A DNA stretch of 64,000 nt from positions 848 through 64,847 of the forward strand of contig JBATMK010000325.1 in NCBI GenBank assembly GCA_049289815.1. The letters are read 5' to 3'. Both the position numbers and the translations under genes were made by a program. The notes under the pieces are model-generated. The model ran no database searches. It was not told the origin of the DNA and saw nothing but the letters and a program-made list of their open reading frames with translations. Positions 4,389 through 16,789 of the stretch are shown one piece after another. This DNA is from Flavobacteriales bacterium. Its GTDB lineage: Bacteria; Bacteroidota; Bacteroidia; Flavobacteriales_F; PHOS-HE28. Every line of letters starts with the position of its first letter. The stretch's first letter is position 1.

Positions 4389-5705
4389 TCACCATGCGCA
4401 AAGCGGCCGTAAGCGCATCATGCCACCCACTTGGAAACGCACGCGGTCCAGTTCGGCCGTGTTGCCCGCGTTCTTCAATGCGGTGTCGATCATCTGAGCC
4501 ACTTGTGCGCACTCGGTTTCCTTCAGCCCACGCGAGGTAACGGCCGGCGTACCGATGCGGATGCCGCTGGTGACGAAGGGGCTCTGCGTATCGAAGGGTA
4601 CCATGTTCTTGTTCACTGTGATGCCAGCCGTGCCCAACGCGACCTCGGCATCCTTGCCGGTGATGTCCTTGTTGCGCAGATCGATGAGCATGCAATGGTT
4701 GTCGGTGCCCCCGCTCACGATGTTGTAGCCCTTGGCCACGAGTGCCTTGGCGATGGCCTTGGCATTGGCGATCACTTGCTTGCCGTAAGTGGTGAAGGAA
4801 GGATCCAATGCTTCGCCGAAGGCAACGGCCTTGGCGGCGATCACGTGTTCCAGCGGACCACCCTGCGTGCCGGGGAATACGGCCCCGTCCAGCACTGCGC
4901 TCATCTTGCGCACCTCACCTTTCGGTGTCTTCAAGCCCCACGGATTGTCGAAGTCGCGGCCCATCATGATCAAGCCGCCGCGGGGGCCGCGCAGTGTTTT
5001 GTGCGTGGTGGTGGTAACGATGTGGCAATGGGGCAGCGGATCGTTCAGCAGCTTGGCGGCGATGAGGCCAGCGGGGTGGCTCACGTCGGCCATGAGCAAC
5101 GCACCCACTTCATCGGCGATCTCACGGAAGCGCTTGTAATCCCAATCGCGACTGTAGGCGCTGGCCCCGCAGATGATGAGTTTCGGTTGCTCCTTGCGCG
5201 CTGTCTCCGCAACGATGTCCATGTCCACCCGGCCGGTCTCCTTGTTCACGCCGTAGAACGTGGCGTGATAGAGCTTGCCACTGAAGTTCACAGGGCTGCC
5301 GTGGGTCAGGTGCCCGCCATGGCTCAGGTCGAAACCCAGGATCGTATCACCGGGCTTCAAACAACCGAGCATCACGCTCGCATTGGCCTGCGCACCGCTG
5401 TGCGGTTGCACATTGGCCCATGCCGCTCCGAAGAGTTTTTTCACGCGATCGATCGCGAGGTTCTCCACCTGGTCCACGAATTCGCAACCGCCGTAGTAGC
5501 GCTTGCCCGGAAGCCCCTCAGCATACTTGTTGGTGAGCACACTGCCCATTGCGGCCATCACCTGGGCGCTCACGAAATTCTCACTGGCGATCAACTCAAG
5601 GCCATTGGTCTGGCGCAAGCGTTCGCGTTCGATCAGGTCGAAGATGGGGGTGTCGGCGTGCACCACGGGGGGGGCGGGAGCCGTGGTATCGGTGGTTTCT
5701 TCCAT
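4389..5705 (-). CDS. glyA: Serine hydroxymethyltransferase
   Basis: 438 aa. Hallmark SHMT motifs: [29 protein letters not shown], the PLP-lysine region [14 protein letters not shown], and ALKNAG near the C-terminus. Confidence 0.95.
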
Positions 5706-5744: not shown

Positions 5745-6203
5745 TCACCGGATGCTTTGTGCGCCCAAGGCTTTGCCCGCCACCAGGACCAACATCACCA
5801 CAGGGTATTGTACCATGTGCAGGAGCTTCACGCCCACATCCGCCAAAGGTGGCAGCCATGCAGAGAATAAGTGCAGCACCAGTGCCAGCCCGCACACCGC
5901 ACCTACGGCCAGAACGATCGGTCGCGAGTAGCTCCATCGCCTGAACAGCAAGAAGGCCAGTACCGTGGCGAGCGAAGTCATGACCAGGACATATCCGATG
6001 GACAGAGCCCACTTCAACCCATTGAGCTGGCCGAGTGACCAGCCATGGGTCCAAGCCTGGAAGATGGAATGCGCATACGAGAAGCCCGTTGCCCGGCGCA
6101 CGTGGTCCAACTGGTAGTTGAGGTTCAGGAACAGGAACTCGCGCAGGGCCCCCAGTGCGATAGCTGCTGCAAGCACTGCTGCGATCGCGAGCCTGCGCTT
6201 CAT
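5745..6203 (-). CDS. Exosortase F system-associated membrane protein (XrtF partner)
   Basis: About 152-aa hydrophobic protein immediately downstream of the XrtF-like gene, with a 4-nt overlap. Start refined to MKRRLAIAAVLAA at 6203. This gene order matches the XrtF operon convention. Confidence 0.45.
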   Translation of the reverse strand: MKRRLAIAAVLAAAIALGALREFLFLNLNYQLDHVRRATGFSYAHSIFQAWTHGWSLGQLNGLKWALSIGYVLVMTSLATVLAFLLFRRWSYSRPIVLAVGAVCGLALVLHLFSAWLPPLADVGVKLLHMVQYPVVMLVLVAGKALGAQSIR

Positions 6204-6748
6204 GTTGCGGCGGACGTCGCGCTGAAGCGCTTCACCCAAAGCCACCACAGCAGGAACACCCAGCCGTACACCACGATGTAGAACACGTAATCGTGGTTGA
6301 AGGTGAGCCACTCATAGTTGTATGTGACCACGATGGAGAGGGCTGCCACGCGCACGGCATTGATCAGGTGGATGCTGAGCAACCCGACGAGGAGGAACCA
6401 GCTGCGGTGCTTCCACGCGCCGGGGTAAGCAATGATGAACACGGCGAACACGGCCATGACCATCACCCCGTTGCACGGATCGCCGATCCACAGCGGGTGT
6501 CCGCCCTGCACGCCGATGGTGCGGTAGTGCTCCGGGTCCGGTTCCGGAAGCAGTTCGTACCCCAGTCCCCTCAAAATGAGCCCCGCCACCAGGATGAGAT
6601 TACCGATCACCACCCGATCTAGCCACGCACTTGGATGCAGGACCAGATAGTAAAGGAGCAACCAACAAGCGAACAAGATGAAGCCGAAGACGAGGAAGCG
6701 GAGGAGAGGATCCTTCTTCACCACCGCCAAGGTGGGAAGCGCCGGCAT
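6200..6748 (-). CDS. xrtF: Exosortase family protein, XrtF-type (small Bacteroidota exosortase)
   Basis: 182 aa with about six TM segments. Contains the conserved motifs IGDPCNG and R..A. The size and architecture match the small XrtF subfamily, and the partner gene sits directly downstream. Confidence 0.6.
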   Translation of the reverse strand: MPALPTLAVVKKDPLLRFLVFGFILFACWLLLYYLVLHPSAWLDRVVIGNLILVAGLILRGLGYELLPEPDPEHYRTIGVQGGHPLWIGDPCNGVMVMAVFAVFIIAYPGAWKHRSWFLLVGLLSIHLINAVRVAALSIVVTYNYEWLTFNHDYVFYIVVYGWVFLLWWLWVKRFSATSAAT

Positions 6749-6972
6749 CAGCGCGCGGCCTTGCGCTGTCGGCGCAGGTTGAGGGCCATCTTACTTCCGA
6801 AGAGGACACCGGCAGCAGCCAGCAGGCTTACGCCTCCGTCGATCGGGATGCAAGGCGGGGGCCAACAAGGAGGCGGCCCACCGATCGGCGGACCACCCTG
6901 TGCTAAGAGGCCACCAACAGCAGGTACCACCAACATTAAGAGAAGGAGGAGGGAGCGCAAAGACAACCGCAT
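6748..6972 (-). CDS. Small secreted Pro/Gly/Cys-rich peptide with a C-terminal exosortase-type sorting signal (putative XrtF cargo)
   Basis: 74 aa. Signal peptide MRLSLRSLLLLLMLVVPAVGGLLAQ. The mature part is GGPPIGGPPPCWPPPCIP. It is followed by PID + GGVSLLAAAGVLFGS (TM) + KMALNLRRQRKAAR (basic tail). Its stop codon overlaps the xrtF start. Confidence 0.4.
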   Translation of the reverse strand: MRLSLRSLLLLLMLVVPAVGGLLAQGGPPIGGPPPCWPPPCIPIDGGVSLLAAAGVLFGSKMALNLRRQRKAAR

Positions 6973-7125
6973 ATTGAGGCGAACAGGGTCAGGATTCAGA
7001 AGTGGCCAAAAGTAGGAGAATTGTGATGCGGGATCAGGGACATCCCCGAAGGATCATCAACAGGATCCGACGGGTTACGCGATACCCGCGACGGGCACCC
7101 TTGCTGGGTGGTCCGGCGCTGACCG

Positions 7126-7152
7126 GCGGGCATATATTCGCGCCCGCTTTTT
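7126..7152 (+). promoter_or_regulatory. GC hairpin followed by TTTTT (terminator/attenuator-like) in the wzc leader
   Basis: GCGGGC-atatattcgc-GCCCGC, then TTTTT at 7148-7152. It lies 40 nt upstream of the wzc ATG and contains a TATATT -10-like hexamer. Confidence 0.3.
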
Positions 7153-7194
7153 CCGGTGCGGCCCAATGGGCCCATCGTGGCGGAGAACCCCCAG

Positions 7195-9651
7195 ATGGCA
7201 GCAGCGAAGGCCCCCGGCAAGGGAGGCGTCATCGACGTTAACGATCTGCGCTTTTTCCTGCGCATCGTACAGAAGAACTGGTATTTGGTGGTATTGGCCG
7301 TGGCCCTCTCGGCTGTGCTGAGCGCCTTGTACAGCTACAAGCTTCCGGAAGTGCACGGGGCCAGCACGCAGATCCTGTTGAAGGACCGCGAGGTGTTCAA
7401 CTACCAGACCCAGATCTACCAGAACATCGGCTACATAGCCGCCTACGGCGACATCGTGAACCAGAAGCGGGTGCTGACCAGCTACGACATGATCGACAAA
7501 ACGCTGGACAAGCTCGATTTCGACGTGAGCTACTACATCCTGGGCCGGTTGAAGACCACAGAGAAGTACCATGAACTGCCCTTCGAGGTGGATGCCGTAC
7601 CACTGGACAAGAGCCTTTACGAGAAGCCGATCGACGTGAAGATCGTGGATGCCGAAACCTTCACCATCACGTACGATGCGGGTAAGAGCGGCCCGGTGAG
7701 CTACACGTTGCCGTTCGATCGCGATACCAGCGCGGGCAACGACATCCGGTTGAAGGTCCGCCGCATGAAGCATATCACACGCGAGGCCTTGGCCTCCCTG
7801 GCCGATGGCGATTACCAGTTCGTGCTGCACAGCCGCCCATGGCTGGTGAACAAGTACAAGAGCAGCATGGATGTGGAGAACCTGGAGTACACCAGCATCC
7901 TGGAGATCAAGGTGGAGGATGAAAAGCCCGAGCGGGCGAAGTTGTTCCTCGATAGTCTCAGCACGGTGTACATACACTATACGCTGCAGAGCGAATTCGA
8001 TATCAACGACAACACCATGGGTTACATCGACAAACAGCTCGATGAGGTGACCGTGATATTGAACAGCTATGAGGACGACCTACAGAACTACAAGGAGAAC
8101 AAGAACATCCTGGACCTGAGCCGGGAGGAAGAGCGCTATTTCGACCAGCTGGTGAACTTCGACAACAACCGGCGTCAGTACGAGCTGATGATCGAGAGCC
8201 TCAACTCCTTGGAGGATTACGTGCTCAACATCGGCGATGAGGAATTGCTTCCACCAAGCTTCTACATCCTCCAAGGAGACATCTTCCTTACCAGCAGCGT
8301 AAGTGAACTGTACACCATGCAGATGGGCCGCAACCGGATGCTTCAGGATGCAACGGAAGAGAACCAGGCCATCTCCAAGCTCGACGAGACCATCGGCCTC
8401 ACCCGTAACAACCTGCTCACCTACATCATCAACGATCGCAAGGCCATCCAAGAGAAGATCGGTGACGTGAAGACGCAGATCGACGACTACGAAGGCTTGA
8501 TCCGCCGCATACCACAAAGTCAACGCGACATACTCAACATCGAACGCAAGGTCCAGGTGAATGAAAAGCTCTACCTCTTCCTGCTGGAGAAACGTGCCAA
8601 TACGGTGATCGCCAAAGCGGGTATCATCCCCCAGACCAAGGTGATCGAGCGCGCGCGCGGGCTTGGCGTTGTGCGCCCCGACAAATTGGGCATCCTGTAT
8701 TCCTTCATCGTGGGTGGCCTCATCCTGTCGCTCATCGTGGTCTTCATCAGGGTGATGTTCTATGACCGGATCGAGAACGCCGATCAGTTGCGGGCCATGA
8801 CACAGACCCCCGTGTTCGGGGAGATCATCGCCAGCGAGAAGGCCGAGGAGAACTACGTGGTGGTGGACAGCGATCCGAAGTCGGCCATCACCGAGAGCTT
8901 CCGTACGGTCCGCACCAACTTGGAATACCTGCCCCAGACGCCCGCGGGCAGATTGATCATGGTAACCAGTTACCGGCCCAACGAAGGCAAGACGTTCTGC
9001 AGCGTGAACCTGAGCGCGATACTGGCCAAAGCCGGCAAGAAGGTGCTGTTGCTGGAACTCGACCTGCACAAACCCAAAGTGGGAGCCGGGCTGGGCATGA
9101 CCAGCCCGATGGGTATCAGCAACCTGATGGTGGGCAAGTGCACCATCGAGGAAGTGATACTGGCCACGCACATCGAGAATTTCCATGTGATCCTCAGCGG
9201 ACCTACGCCGCCCAATGCGAGCGAGTTGGTGCTCAGCAAGCACATGAATGAGCTTTTCGCTTACGGCCGCGAGCACTACGATTACGTGATGATCGACACC
9301 CCGCCGGTTGGCCTGATCAGCGACGCGTTGGTGATGATGAAGCTCGTGGACGCCACCCTGTTCGTGGTGAACACGCGCTTCGCGAACAAGGACCACCTGA
9401 AGAGCGCCATGGAAGTTCACTTGGCGAACCCGGTTTCCAATTTCGGCTTCATCCTGAACGGGGTGAAAATGAAGAAGAGCAAGTACTACTATAACACCAA
9501 CTACGGCTATGGCTACCGCTATGCCTATGGGTATGGTTATGGTAGCGGCTACGGCTACGGTTATGGATACGGCCGCAAACGCCGCAGCAAGAAGGACGAT
9601 GAAGCCAAGCCGGAGGTTGAGCAGAAACGGAAGCCGGATACCCGCGCGTGA
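7195..9651 (+). CDS. wzc: Polysaccharide co-polymerase / BY-kinase (Wzc-like tyrosine autokinase chain-length determinant)
   Basis: Wzz-like N-terminal TM. A long coiled-coil periplasmic domain. A second TM, then a cytoplasmic P-loop kinase domain (VTSYRPNEGKTFCSVNLS Walker A, DTPP Walker B). The C-terminal tyrosine cluster is YYYNTNYGYGYRYAYGYGYGSGYGYGYGYG. ATG start chosen at 7195; the track ORF begins at a GTG at 7156. Confidence 0.85.
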   Translation: MAAAKAPGKGGVIDVNDLRFFLRIVQKNWYLVVLAVALSAVLSALYSYKLPEVHGASTQILLKDREVFNYQTQIYQNIGYIAAYGDIVNQKRVLTSYDMIDKTLDKLDFDVSYYILGRLKTTEKYHELPFEVDAVPLDKSLYEKPIDVKIVDAETFTITYDAGKSGPVSYTLPFDRDTSAGNDIRLKVRRMKHITREALASLADGDYQFVLHSRPWLVNKYKSSMDVENLEYTSILEIKVEDEKPERAKLFLDSLSTVYIHYTLQSEFDINDNTMGYIDKQLDEVTVILNSYEDDLQNYKENKNILDLSREEERYFDQLVNFDNNRRQYELMIESLNSLEDYVLNIGDEELLPPSFYILQGDIFLTSSVSELYTMQMGRNRMLQDATEENQAISKLDETIGLTRNNLLTYIINDRKAIQEKIGDVKTQIDDYEGLIRRIPQSQRDILNIERKVQVNEKLYLFLLEKRANTVIAKAGIIPQTKVIERARGLGVVRPDKLGILYSFIVGGLILSLIVVFIRVMFYDRIENADQLRAMTQTPVFGEIIASEKAEENYVVVDSDPKSAITESFRTVRTNLEYLPQTPAGRLIMVTSYRPNEGKTFCSVNLSAILAKAGKKVLLLELDLHKPKVGAGLGMTSPMGISNLMVGKCTIEEVILATHIENFHVILSGPTPPNASELVLSKHMNELFAYGREHYDYVMIDTPPVGLISDALVMMKLVDATLFVVNTRFANKDHLKSAMEVHLANPVSNFGFILNGVKMKKSKYYYNTNYGYGYRYAYGYGYGSGYGYGYGYGRKRRSKKDDEAKPEVEQKRKPDTRA
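9484..9570 (+). repeat. Degenerate tandem repeat encoding the (Gly-Tyr)n tail of Wzc
   Basis: tacggctat ggctaccgctat gcctatgggtat ggttatggt ... ggctacggctacggttatggatacggc. About 29 codons, roughly half Tyr. Confidence 0.7.
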
Positions 9652-10537: not shown

Positions 10538-11797
10538 ATGGAAGGCATCGCGATCCGCGTTTCCGATGTGCACAAGCAATACCGTTTGGGCGTGTTCGGC
10601 GGTACCACGCTGGCCGAGGATCTCAAAGCGTGGTGGGCCAAGGTGAACGGCAGGCCCGATCCGCGTGTGCCCATCGGTAAGGAACACATGTCGCAGCGCT
10701 CGGGCGAGTTCTTCCTCGCACTGCGCGGCCTCAGCTTCGACATCAGGAAAGGAGAGATCGTGGGCGTGATCGGTCGCAATGGCGCTGGCAAGAGCACGCT
10801 GTTGAAGTTGATGTCGCGCATCACCTCACCAACGTCAGGCACCATCCGGATCACGGGCCGCACGAGCAGTTTGTTGGAGGTGGGAACGGGCTTCAATCCT
10901 GAACTGACCGGTCGCGAGAACATCTTCCTCAACGGCGCCATCCTGGGCATGCGCAAGCACGAGATCGATGCCCGGCTGCAGGCGATCATCAGCTTCAGCG
11001 GCATCGAGCACCATATCGACTCACCGGTGAAACGTTACAGCAGCGGCATGCGCGTACGCCTTGGTTTCGCGGTGGCCGCACATTTGGAGCCGGAAGTGCT
11101 CATCATCGACGAAGTGTTGGCCGTGGGCGACACCGAATTCCAGCGCAAATGCCTAGGCAAGATGAAGGACGTGGCCAACAGCGGCCGCACTATTCTCTTC
11201 GTAAGTCATAACATGACTTCCGTGAGGAGTTTGTGCAATCGCGTGATCTGGTTGCAGGAGGGCAGGGTGACCATGGACGGCCCTGCGGAGGATGTGGTGA
11301 ACGCCTACTTGCGCACCTACACCAACAACAACGATACGGTGGAATGGAGTGAAGCGGAGGCACCGGGCAATGAGCGTGTGCGGTTGCGCCGTGTGGCCAT
11401 CGAACGCGACGACGATGGAGCCTTGCTCACTTGGCGGACACCTTTCCGCGTCCGTGTCGGTTTCGATAACATCGGCATGAATGATGATGGATTGAACGTG
11501 GGCTTGCTCGTTTTCAACAGCGACGACATCCTCGTTTTCTCCACCAGCCTGCGGGAAGGGAGCACTTTCCGTGTGAAGCCCGGAACCAACAGCGTTTGGT
11601 GCGAGGTGCCTGCGGATCTGTTGAACATCGGTGACTACCGCATCACGGTGATGTTTTTCTACAATGCCAAGCGCCTTATGCGGCATGATGATACCGTGGC
11701 ATTCGCAGTCCACGACACCGAGCGCGAAGGTGCTTGGTACGGCAAGCGCAAGGGCGTAGTGATACCGATTCTGAAATGGGGCGCGGAGGGCGGTTGA
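10538..11797 (+). CDS. wzt: ABC transporter ATP-binding protein with a C-terminal glycan-binding domain (Wzt/TagH-like)
   Basis: Walker A GRNGAGKST, signature YSSGMRVRLGFAVA, Walker B LIIDEVLAVGD. An additional C-terminal domain of about 150 aa resembles the Wzt_C O-antigen-terminus-binding beta-sandwich. Confidence 0.85.
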   Translation: MEGIAIRVSDVHKQYRLGVFGGTTLAEDLKAWWAKVNGRPDPRVPIGKEHMSQRSGEFFLALRGLSFDIRKGEIVGVIGRNGAGKSTLLKLMSRITSPTSGTIRITGRTSSLLEVGTGFNPELTGRENIFLNGAILGMRKHEIDARLQAIISFSGIEHHIDSPVKRYSSGMRVRLGFAVAAHLEPEVLIIDEVLAVGDTEFQRKCLGKMKDVANSGRTILFVSHNMTSVRSLCNRVIWLQEGRVTMDGPAEDVVNAYLRTYTNNNDTVEWSEAEAPGNERVRLRRVAIERDDDGALLTWRTPFRVRVGFDNIGMNDDGLNVGLLVFNSDDILVFSTSLREGSTFRVKPGTNSVWCEVPADLLNIGDYRITVMFFYNAKRLMRHDDTVAFAVHDTEREGAWYGKRKGVVIPILKWGAEGG

Positions 11798-11993: not shown

Positions 11994-12809
11994 TTGCCCC
12001 ACGCCATGATCGGGTGGCTCGACCGCTTCCGGCGACACATGCGCCCGGCGTTCCTCATTATCGGAGCGCAGAAAGCCGGCACGTCGTCGCTGTTCAAGAT
12101 GTTCGCTGCACACCAACGCGTCGTAGCACCTGTGACGAAGGAACAGCATTTCTTCGACCGCGGGGACCGCTATGCACGGGGTTTCAGCCACTATATCAGA
12201 CAGTTCCCCCTGGCATCCGGCAACACGGGTCGCATCACCTTCGAAGCAACACCGAACTACCTCTTCGAGGAAGCGTGCGCGCGGCGTATCCATCATCACC
12301 TGCCTGAGGTGAAGTTGATAGCGGTGCTGCGCAATCCGGTGAGCCGGGCTTACTCCGCATGGAACATGTACCGCCATTTCGCAGGCCATCCGGTCCACGG
12401 CGAATGGCACGATCCGCGTACATTCGAACAGGCCGTGGAGGACGAACTGGCCGGAAGAACCACCGCGCGTGCCCATCTTTACCTGGAGCGGGGACAGTAC
12501 GCGCGTCTCTTGGGCCGTTACTTCGATCTGTTCGGTCGCGATCGTTTGCTCGTGCTCCGGCATGATCGGCTCGATCTGGAGCCCGCCGCCGTCATGGACG
12601 AATGCTGCCGCTTCCTCGGCTTGGAGCTTTTCGCCGGGAATCCCGCACAACTACTGGTGCGGGACAACGTGCGTCCTTATCCCGCCGCGATGGATCCCGC
12701 GCTCCACGATCGCCTGGTAGCGCATTTCGCGCCGCACATGCAGGAACTTGAACAGTTATTAGGAACAGGCTGGGATCTGCTCCAAGCCCGTACCGCACGG
12801 TCGAAATAG
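11994..12809 (+). CDS. Sulfotransferase family protein (PAPS-dependent carbohydrate sulfotransferase)
   Basis: The 5'-PSB loop LIIGAQKAGTSSL and the 3'-PB region RNPVSRAYSAW, like eukaryotic-type heparan-sulfate sulfotransferase domains. The start may be the internal M at 12039. Confidence 0.7.
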   Translation: MPHAMIGWLDRFRRHMRPAFLIIGAQKAGTSSLFKMFAAHQRVVAPVTKEQHFFDRGDRYARGFSHYIRQFPLASGNTGRITFEATPNYLFEEACARRIHHHLPEVKLIAVLRNPVSRAYSAWNMYRHFAGHPVHGEWHDPRTFEQAVEDELAGRTTARAHLYLERGQYARLLGRYFDLFGRDRLLVLRHDRLDLEPAAVMDECCRFLGLELFAGNPAQLLVRDNVRPYPAAMDPALHDRLVAHFAPHMQELEQLLGTGWDLLQARTARSK

Positions 12810-15988: not shown

Positions 15989-16789
15989 CTATGGCGCGAA
16001 CCGCTCGAGCCGCGTTCCCTTCAGATTGGCCAGTACTTCTTCGATGATGCCGGGGTCAAGCATCTCGCGCCAGCGATCGATCACGCTCTTGTTCTTGTAT
16101 ACCGCATAGTAGCTGTCGGTGTGGACCTGTCCGCTTTCCTGAAGGAACCGACGCGTCTGTTCCTCGAAGGTGATGTGGCAGAAGTCGAAAAGCCCGGGGA
16201 TGGACTTCATCGGATCATTCACGAGATCCTCGTACTGTACGATCCGGAAGCGATCGGGGTATTTATCCTGCAGGTCCAGGTAGAGGTGTGTCACCTCCTT
16301 CCATTTGTAATAGCCGAAGTAGTCCTCGTTGCCGATGTTCTTGCAGTTGCCGAAACGCCATTCCTTGCGGATGTCGGATCCCAGCGGGAATTCCTTCGCG
16401 TTCCGGCTCCAGCTATCGAGTACTCCACAGGGGTGACGAACGATACCGATGCCGGTCATCGAAGGTACGCGGCGCATCATGGGTTCCAGCACACTTTGGT
16501 AGCGGTTCTCCTTGAAAACCAGCGTGCGCGGAACGGCGAGCTTCTCGAAACGAGGGTATTCGCCGCTCGCCTGCTTGTCGGCCTGTGTCAGGAACGGTGT
16601 ATCGGCTGTGACCATCTCTTCGAAGAACCGCTCATATTCCTCACGCGTGCTGTTTTCGTTCACCCGCCCCTTGAACTCGTAAGAGAACAGCGGCTGGAAA
16701 CGGAACACCACCTCCGGCGAACTGTTGAACACCTGGCCGAGCCAGCTGGTACCGCTGCGCGCCACACCGAACAAGGCCACGGTCTTCAT
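15989..16789 (-). CDS. Sulfotransferase family protein (second copy)
   Basis: 5'-PSB loop LFGVARSGTSWLGQV. Size and motif spacing match PAPS sulfotransferases. Encoded on the opposite strand from the flanking operon. Confidence 0.65.
   Translation of the reverse strand: MKTVALFGVARSGTSWLGQVFNSSPEVVFRFQPLFSYEFKGRVNENSTREEYERFFEEMVTADTPFLTQADKQASGEYPRFEKLAVPRTLVFKENRYQSVLEPMMRRVPSMTGIGIVRHPCGVLDSWSRNAKEFPLGSDIRKEWRFGNCKNIGNEDYFGYYKWKEVTHLYLDLQDKYPDRFRIVQYEDLVNDPMKSIPGLFDFCHITFEEQTRRFLQESGQVHTDSYYAVYKNKSVIDRWREMLDPGIIEEVLANLKGTRLERFAP

Follow-up and report, generated by a model that had tools for sequence, protein, structure and literature searches.

Three minus-strand genes at 6972-5745 of a 64-kb stretch of DNA from an uncultured member of the Flavobacteriales (the window; about 60% GC throughout) encode a very small, presumably exported protein, an exosortase and a membrane protein, which raises the question of which protein-sorting system they form and what becomes of so short a substrate. 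In 2006 exosortases were put forward as a Gram-negative equivalent of sortases, and they have repeatedly been linked to exopolysaccharide (EPS), floc and biofilm formation; we know of no exosortase whose cleavage site, acceptor molecule and substrate fate have been established. A sequence-only reading had taken the cassette for an XrtF operon whose tiny Pro/Gly/Cys-rich cargo bears a P-I-D version of a usual P-E-F signal. Judged from profile scores and synteny, we are highly confident that it is instead a PID-CTERM/exosortase X (XrtX) system made up of the genes for a PID-CTERM mini-protein, XrtX and an XrtX-associated membrane protein. A dedicated cassette, in which one enzyme serves one adjacent substrate, is probably the best explanation of the locus as a whole.

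The three open reading frames (ORFs) were found where the sequence-only reading had placed them, and the translational coupling that it described was read directly in the sequence. The ATG of xrtX and the TGA of the cargo gene have one base in common, and the stop of the 182-aa gene overlaps the ATG of the third gene, at 6203, in the sequence ATGA. For the third gene, the mechanical ORF list offered a longer 188-aa version starting at GTG, but model NF046082 aligned from the first residue of the 152-aa form. The genes for substrate, enzyme and partner follow one another with overlaps in the window, the arrangement expected of a PID-CTERM/XrtX system.

The curated NCBIfam cutoffs for NF046080 (PID_CTERM), NF046081 (XrtX), NF046082 (XrtX-associated protein), TIGR04128 (XrtF) and TIGR04178 (exosortase/archaeosortase signature) are 26, 170, 75, 90 and 23 bits, respectively. 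The 74-aa protein scored 33.9 bits with NF046080 over residues 43-61 of 74 and passed the cutoff. The top NCBIfam model of the 182-aa enzyme was XrtX with 156.4 bits, 73 bits over XrtF, and the enzyme passed the superfamily signature with 49.3 bits, so that it does hit the exosortase models against which it was to be checked. Other members of the superfamily scored low with the enzyme: ArtC reached 11.8 bits (cutoff 100), ArtA 20 bits and Pfam Exosortase_EpsH 16.1 bits (threshold 25.7). The 152-aa partner matched NF046082 with 32.8 bits (E = 4.9e-8) over positions 1-142 of the 147 in the model. When NCBIfam was searched at E values up to 10, the 152-aa protein matched only this XrtX-associated model and, by chance, a transporter model, with no match to the XrtF-associated model, and the cargo had no match to PEF-CTERM. 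The cargo also matched no PEP-CTERM model in NCBIfam.

Two shortfalls count against the assignment: the enzyme misses the XrtX cutoff (156.4 vs 170 bits), and the partner misses its own (32.8 vs 75 bits). Among 10 close relatives of the enzyme, seven passed the XrtX model (171-185 bits) and three scored 158-165 bits, while the XrtF model gave 72-89 bits on relatives; the partner of a cutoff-passing XrtX, at locus L085, likewise scored low with NF046082 (40.8 bits). On these sequence comparisons the window enzyme lies just outside the operational XrtX cutoff and yet in the same clade with shared synteny. Since the enzyme and partner of the window fall under curated cutoffs, automatic annotation would leave this high-GC subclade unnamed. 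NCBI labels the relatives "hypothetical" or "archaeosortase/exosortase family protein", with one named "exosortase X", and the mini-protein relatives carry Pfam PF28310 (PID_CTERM). No relevant paper or experiment came up in a literature search on PID-CTERM and XrtX, the latter also under the name "exosortase X". The PID-CTERM/XrtX system is known as a kind from databases only (NCBIfam, Pfam PF28310), and by its model scores the window copy is a slightly divergent member of it.

The reading as an XrtF operon, with a cargo bearing a degenerate form of the PEF signal usual for XrtF, draws on real similarities, as XrtF is the second-best model of the enzyme (83.2 bits) and many relatives are labelled XrtF by the Joint Genome Institute (JGI). 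However, the XrtF score lies under its own cutoff and far under that of XrtX, the XrtF-associated model is unmatched, the third gene has the XrtX-associated model as its sole relevant match, and the cargo passes the curated PID-CTERM signal. PEF-CTERM, moreover, pairs with archaeosortase C (PMC5244752), and no substrate of XrtF is known so far (PMC10936215). The scores refute the XrtF assignment, which we regard as very improbable. Because the top models of the three genes are those of the PID-CTERM/XrtX system, P-I-D is the normal signal of the XrtX family rather than a non-canonical one. What stands of the sequence-only reading is the exosortase operon with a tiny Pro/Gly/Cys-rich substrate and a tripartite sorting signal; its family name does not.

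Whether the 74-aa ORF is a gene at all was decided with related loci from two scans. The first covered one genome per species and gave 80 loci, all in metagenome-assembled genomes (MAGs) of uncultured Flavobacteriales/Bacteroidota; the second covered metagenome contigs and started from a remote XrtX (40% identity with that of the window; 188.5 bits to the XrtX model). The mini-gene was directly upstream of xrtX in 78 of the 80 genome loci, with the gene order of the window, and in the other two the exosortase lies about 30 nt from a contig end. The second scan showed it in this position at 68 of 80 loci, most of the others having XrtX at or near a contig end, which gives about 146 of 160 related loci in both scans. 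Downstream of xrtX, 80/80 genome loci and 76/82 other loci have the partner gene.

In 79 mini-protein sequences (78 related loci and the window) the 14-residue core PPCWPPPCIPIDGG (P-P-C-W-P-P-P-C-I-P-I-D-G-G) is essentially invariant, while the adjacent enzyme is only 52-84% identical. Synonymous variation in the core is saturated, with all four Pro, both Cys, three Ile and both Asp codons in use. An amino-acid core that stays fixed while its synonymous codons vary points to selection on the peptide and not on the DNA. The motif PPCWPPPCIPIDGG was also present in 117-120 of the best 120 clusters, the protein database holding 174 mini-protein clusters. In 72 of 77 loci a TAnnTTTG box, which we take to be the -7 promoter element of the Bacteroidetes sigma-A, precedes the cargo start by 19-46 nt; the background expectation is about 1.6%. 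By the pattern of its sequence conservation, the mini-protein is encoded by a genuine gene on which selection acts at the protein level. A chance reading frame in GC-rich intergenic DNA could have been suspected, the ORF being short, of low complexity and rich in Pro and Gly in a 60% GC window with plentiful overlapping chance ORFs. This suspicion, which loss of the gene from relatives was to have confirmed, is refuted by its retention among them, by a core that is invariant despite synonymous change, by a conserved promoter box of its own and by matches to curated NCBIfam and Pfam models, and it keeps practically no probability.

The architecture described for the 74-aa precursor, with a signal peptide, a mature part of about 20 residues, a transmembrane (TM) helix and a basic tail, was borne out. 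The signal peptide can be read from the sequence as residues 1-24, ending in L-L-A, with a predicted cleavage site, and the PID-CTERM domain stands behind it at the extreme C-terminus. Of 79 homologues, 68 have a Gln directly behind the conserved Ala, which fits the Bacteroidetes Q-rule, by which a Gln exposed after signal-peptide cleavage is cyclised to pyroglutamate (PMC5837995, PMC10653852). From the cleavage site to the Pro of PID there are 14-21 residues in the homologues and about 19 in the window (QGGPPIGGPPPCWPPPCIP). The sorting signal consists of P-I-D-G-G, a Gly-rich TM segment and the basic tail RRQRKAAR. In 147 XrtX-adjacent mini-proteins the exposed segment always has at least two Cys, exactly two in 141, with 0-2 residues between the last Cys and the Pro of PID. 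By clade, the paired Cys enclose a loop of 4, 7 or 8-13 residues; the window belongs to the type with 4, and P-P-C-G-G-P-F-G-P-x-C-P-I-D-G-G is the typical motif of the second-scan clade.

To place this cargo in its wider family, a profile of the tail with the preceding Cys-Ile was searched against 1.84 billion representative proteins, of which 767 matched at E<=0.001. Among the best 150 of these, 148 measure 36-121 aa and end in the tail, which indicates that PID-CTERM proteins are mini-proteins in general; the best 150 have short low-complexity ectodomains rich in Pro, Gly and Asp. On this sequence survey the CWPPPC type of the window is one subfamily. Some of the PID-CTERM mini-proteins away from XrtX have no Cys at all. 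Narrow and broad hidden Markov models of the tail, run over six-frame ORFs, found no other PID-CTERM ORF in the 64-kb window or in about 650 kb of flanks of the first 80 loci. The lack of a second such ORF there, together with the adjacency of the genes, matches the one-to-one sorting systems encoded by consecutive genes that Haft has described (bioRxiv 10.1101/2023.06.07.544157).

Two further arrangements were seen in other Bacteroidota contigs. Cys-less PID-CTERM mini-genes stand behind large genes at L084:1273-1479, L084:5001-5204 and L087:4104-4361, and the large genes encode products with weak to borderline matches to the type-A sorting domain of type IX secretion systems (T9SS). Locus L084 has two such pairs, in each of which the mini-gene begins 1 nt after the stop of the large gene. 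This arrangement suggests a second, T9SS-linked role for PID-CTERM mini-proteins. In a Chitinophagaceae MAG, a P-L-D-type mini-protein (L082:4745-4972) lies directly upstream of an exosortase (L082:5023-5610) whose top model was XrtY with 104 bits (cutoff 160), which suggests that mini-protein substrates are not restricted to XrtX.

The WIGDPCNG motif of the enzyme contains the IGDPCNG that the sequence-only reading had pointed out. In an 18-sequence alignment C92 within this motif, R133, H127 and N151-H152-D153 are invariant, and the columns of Cys92, Arg133, His127 and His152 stayed invariant in a 9-sequence alignment to which the distant clade had been added. The presumed catalytic triad of the exosortase family is Cys/Arg/His (bioRxiv 10.1101/2023.06.07.544157), and the signature region together with conserved Cys, Arg and His places the protein in the exosortase/archaeosortase superfamily. 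An AlphaFold2 model has five helices with a mean predicted local distance difference test score (pLDDT) of 85.3, and by this model the window XrtX is a small five-helix membrane enzyme. A sequence search of the PDB gave no match, and a fold search of the PDB with the model gave no significant match, only noise from V-ATPase c-rings (E > 0.6).

Divergent from the cassette, a Wzc-type gene heads a polysaccharide island that continues with an ABC-transporter ATPase, two sulfotransferases, methyltransferases, an aminotransferase and several glycosyltransferases. This divergent placement recurs for Wzc-type homologues in 74/80 genome loci and 65/82 other loci, including clades whose XrtX shares only about 40-50% identity. 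The statement that the cassette abuts an EPS island can thus be extended from one genome to about 140 loci, and a head-to-head pairing kept across the sampled depth of XrtX is stronger evidence than proximity in a single genome. At L085 the Wzc counterpart matched polysaccharide tyrosine autokinase models and, with scores under the respective cutoffs, models for the kinase and chain-length proteins associated with XrtA.

Taken by analogy with related enzymes, the dedicated cassette would work as follows. The pre-peptide would be exported by Sec and cut after Ala24, the new N-terminal Gln would probably cyclise, giving the mature form pGlu-GGPPIGGPPPCWPPPCIP, and a Cys36-Cys41 disulfide would close the loop in the periplasm. 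Cys92 of XrtX would then attack at or beside PID at the membrane surface, leaving the TM segment and the basic tail behind, and the peptide of about 19 residues would be handed to an acceptor. Because of the conserved synteny, we favour as acceptor either a component of the Wzc-dependent polysaccharide or the lipid carrier of that polymer, the alternative being a membrane lipid. The product would in that case be a short peptide cap or anchor and not a surface protein. A general cleave-and-conjugate model has been proposed for exosortases, archaeosortases and rhombosortases (PMC7468200; bioRxiv 10.1101/2023.06.07.544157; PMC7157517). We give cleavage and transfer by XrtX an even chance, and polysaccharide as the specific acceptor is a tentative choice that may well be wrong. 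The complete proposal, in which PID-CTERM mini-proteins have no passenger domain and XrtX covalently ligates a disulfide-looped, Pro-rich peptide of about 15-20 residues, probably pyroglutamyl-capped, to a Wzc-dependent and possibly sulfated polysaccharide or its lipid carrier, is unlikely to be right in every part.

Several points weigh against this mechanism. The literature search found no processing step demonstrated for any PID-CTERM protein or for XrtX, and the acceptor, cleavage site, disulfide and pyroglutamate are all inferred by analogy. The TM segment and tail are unusually conserved for a disposable signal (GG.S.L.AAG...GGKKA.D.R), which would fit a stable subunit too. The count of one PID-CTERM substrate refers to the window and the locus flanks. 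The Cys-less PID-CTERM mini-genes next to T9SS cargo genes have no exosortase within 5 kb, so the role of the superfamily may not be linked to polysaccharide.

The conservation of the tail bears most directly on the main alternative, namely that the mini-protein is a permanent small subunit or pseudo-substrate of the XrtX complex that is not cleaved and transferred. Its TM helix would pack on XrtX or on the associated protein, its Cys loop would serve as a sensor or gate, and the true substrates, if any, would be encoded elsewhere or be non-protein. A mature part of merely 14-21 residues would suit such a subunit, as would a Gly-rich TM segment and KKALDLRR tail conserved far beyond usual sorting signals, a superfamily made up almost entirely of mini-proteins with low-complexity ectodomains, and the coupled translation of three genes, which is expected for stoichiometric partners. 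However, the protein has the full tripartite layout with a P-x-D/E-type motif against the TM segment, as in PEP-CTERM (bioRxiv 10.1101/2023.06.07.544157), and conservation peaks just outside the membrane, at CWPPPCIPIDGG, where the cleavage or recognition site and the functional product would lie. Several copies away from exosortase genes in some genomes also resemble a pattern of many substrates. We consider a permanent subunit rather improbable.

In another alternative XrtX merely hydrolyses its substrate, and a free disulfide-looped, Pro-rich peptide, periplasmic or extracellular and acting as a signal or binding metal, regulates Wzc and polysaccharide production. The very small product with its conserved Cys pair and invariant Trp is consistent with this, as is the divergent promoter region common to the mini-gene and wzc. 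Yet the cassette has no conserved exporter or receptor gene, and the studied relatives ArtA and rhombosortase attach a lipid or other moiety (bioRxiv 10.1101/2023.06.07.544157; PMC7468200). Simple release of the peptide has, in our view, only a small chance of being correct.

Transfer of the peptide by a dedicated XrtX can be set beside known systems. With the PID-CTERM/XrtX system of NCBIfam and Pfam, the window shares the three best models, the gene order of the relatives and a cargo above its cutoff, and it differs in an enzyme and a partner below theirs. The closest named sister family is XrtF, likewise a small Bacteroidota exosortase with a small membrane protein. The window proteins miss both XrtF-related cutoffs, and the XrtX cassette encodes a candidate substrate directly upstream of the enzyme, whereas neither a substrate nor a sorting signal is known for XrtF (PMC10936215). 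In Flavobacterium johnsoniae, deletion of either XrtF or its associated protein (Fjoh_1448/1449) abolishes biofilm formation and surface colonisation (PMC10936215), which suggests the kind of phenotype to be expected for the XrtX cassette.

The PEP-CTERM/XrtA (EpsH) system of Proteobacteria and others shares a three-part C-terminal signal whose Pro-acidic motif adjoins the TM helix, as well as a membrane enzyme with conserved Cys, Arg and His as presumed triad, and it too lies within EPS loci with Wzc-like chain-length/tyrosine-kinase genes (PMC7468200; bioRxiv 10.1101/2023.06.07.544157). However, XrtA has eight or more TM helices (bioRxiv 10.1101/2023.06.07.544157), compared with an XrtX of 182 aa, and it serves many, often large and glycosylated PEP-CTERM proteins, compared with one peptide of about 19 residues in the window. 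ArtA/PGF-CTERM of Haloferax volcanii, homologous and the best studied, removes the C-terminal helix and a lipid is attached (PMC7157517; bioRxiv 10.1101/2023.06.07.544157), and it provides the template for the cleave-and-attach step proposed here; it differs from XrtX in being archaeal, in its large S-layer and other glycoprotein substrates and in its prenyl-derived lipid acceptor. JDVT-CTERM/MrtJ likewise has one target per enzyme, adjacent co-operonic genes and an invariant Cys beside the signature motif (bioRxiv 10.1101/2023.06.07.544157). Unlike XrtX, MrtJ is an unrelated CPBP/Rce1-like protease, and the Cys of its target is thought to be modified before cleavage, whereas the XrtX cargo has a Cys pair.

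Table 1. Features of the PID-CTERM/XrtX cassette and its immediate neighbours in the window.
Feature	Position	Strand	Basis or remark
Bacteroidetes-type -7 promoter box TACTTTTG (TAnnTTTG)	7007..7014	-	read directly; starts 42 nt 5' of the cargo ATG
74-aa PID-CTERM mini-protein, presumed XrtX substrate, MRLSLRSLLLLLMLVVPAVGGLLA+QGGPPIGGPPPCWPPPCIPIDGGVSLLAAAGVLFGSKMALNLRRQRKAAR	6748..6972	-	NF046080, 33.9 bits
Signal peptide, residues 1-24, MRLSLRSLLLLLMLVVPAVGGLLA	6901..6972	-	n-, h- and c-regions in the sequence; predicted cleavage A/Q
Predicted exposed peptide, residues 25-42, QGGPPIGGPPPCWPPPCI	6847..6900	-	holds C36-W-P-P-P-C41
PID-CTERM sorting signal, residues 43-74	6751..6846	-	NF046080 match at residues 43-61
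182-aa exosortase, XrtX clade	6200..6748	-	NF046081, 156.4 bits; TIGR04178, 49.3 bits
152-aa XrtX-associated polytopic membrane protein	5745..6203	-	NF046082, 32.8 bits
Wzc-type chain-length-determinant/tyrosine-autokinase gene	7156..9651	+	Pfam Wzz, GNVR, AAA_31; alternative ATG at 7195
glyA (serine hydroxymethyltransferase)	5705..4389	-	downstream of the cassette, same strand

The surroundings of the cassette (Table 1) offered some further observations. The ABC-transporter ATPase and the two sulfotransferases beside the Wzc-type gene lie at 10538-11797, 11994-12809 and 15989-16789, a gene content that hints at an ABC-exported, sulfated island polymer. The C-terminus of the Wzc-type protein (9400-9651) has a long, unusually regular Tyr/Gly repeat (YGYGYRYAYGYGYGSGYGYGYGYG), the expected tyrosine-autophosphorylation cluster. 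The intergenic region between the mini-gene and wzc (6973-7155; about 185-220 bp) contains the TACTTTTG box of the mini-gene and, on the other strand at about 7135, the near-match TATATTCG; from these sequences the two transcription units may be co-regulated. Between 5000 and 7600, neither an Rfam family nor a sigma-70-type promoter was found, nor any credible intrinsic terminator, the lone terminator-like match lying inside xrtX at shuffled expectation. There may be read-through from the cassette into glyA. As a component of the system, glyA was rejected: it follows the cassette in 48/80 genome loci and is absent from most second-clade loci.

In the low-GC clade a fourth gene (about 162 aa; L085:6320-6808) comes after the XrtX-associated gene. 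It was present in 59/82 loci of the second scan, has no NCBIfam family and no Pfam match on record, and is absent from the clade of the window, where glyA often takes that place. Genes for PorV and for a PorU-like (Peptidase_C25) T9SS protein, at L085:7836-10213, lie about 1 kb downstream of the XrtX cassette of that locus, which may be coincidence. At 871-1710 of the window, a 279-aa ORF has a weak match to the HTTM domain (vitamin-K-dependent carboxylase-like) of 26.4 bits, the cutoff being 27.7.

The system already stands in NCBIfam and Pfam, so the finding corrects a label and does not add a new kind of system. Noteworthy in it are the universal Cys pair by PID, the essentially mini-peptide-only substrates and the family-wide head-to-head pairing with wzc. 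All relatives found come from MAGs or metagenomes, the carriers being uncultured Flavobacteriales, so experiments would need heterologous expression. Several carrier MAG names point to activated-sludge and lake samples, settings in which floc and EPS biology has practical weight. The cassette shrinks the exosortase problem to three components, namely an enzyme of 182 aa, a single accessory protein and a peptide of fixed sequence and about 19 residues, which is ideally suited to mass spectrometry and to assays with synthetic substrates, and thereby offers a minimal model of the unsolved exosortase reaction, while the near-universal pairing with Wzc gives a concrete place to seek the acceptor. 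If the peptide is indeed ligated, the cassette would be a peptide-polysaccharide conjugation system and the simplest natural model for finding an exosortase acceptor, and the Cys-less mini-proteins at T9SS cargo genes, and perhaps also the substrates of XrtF, would be similar peptide tags.

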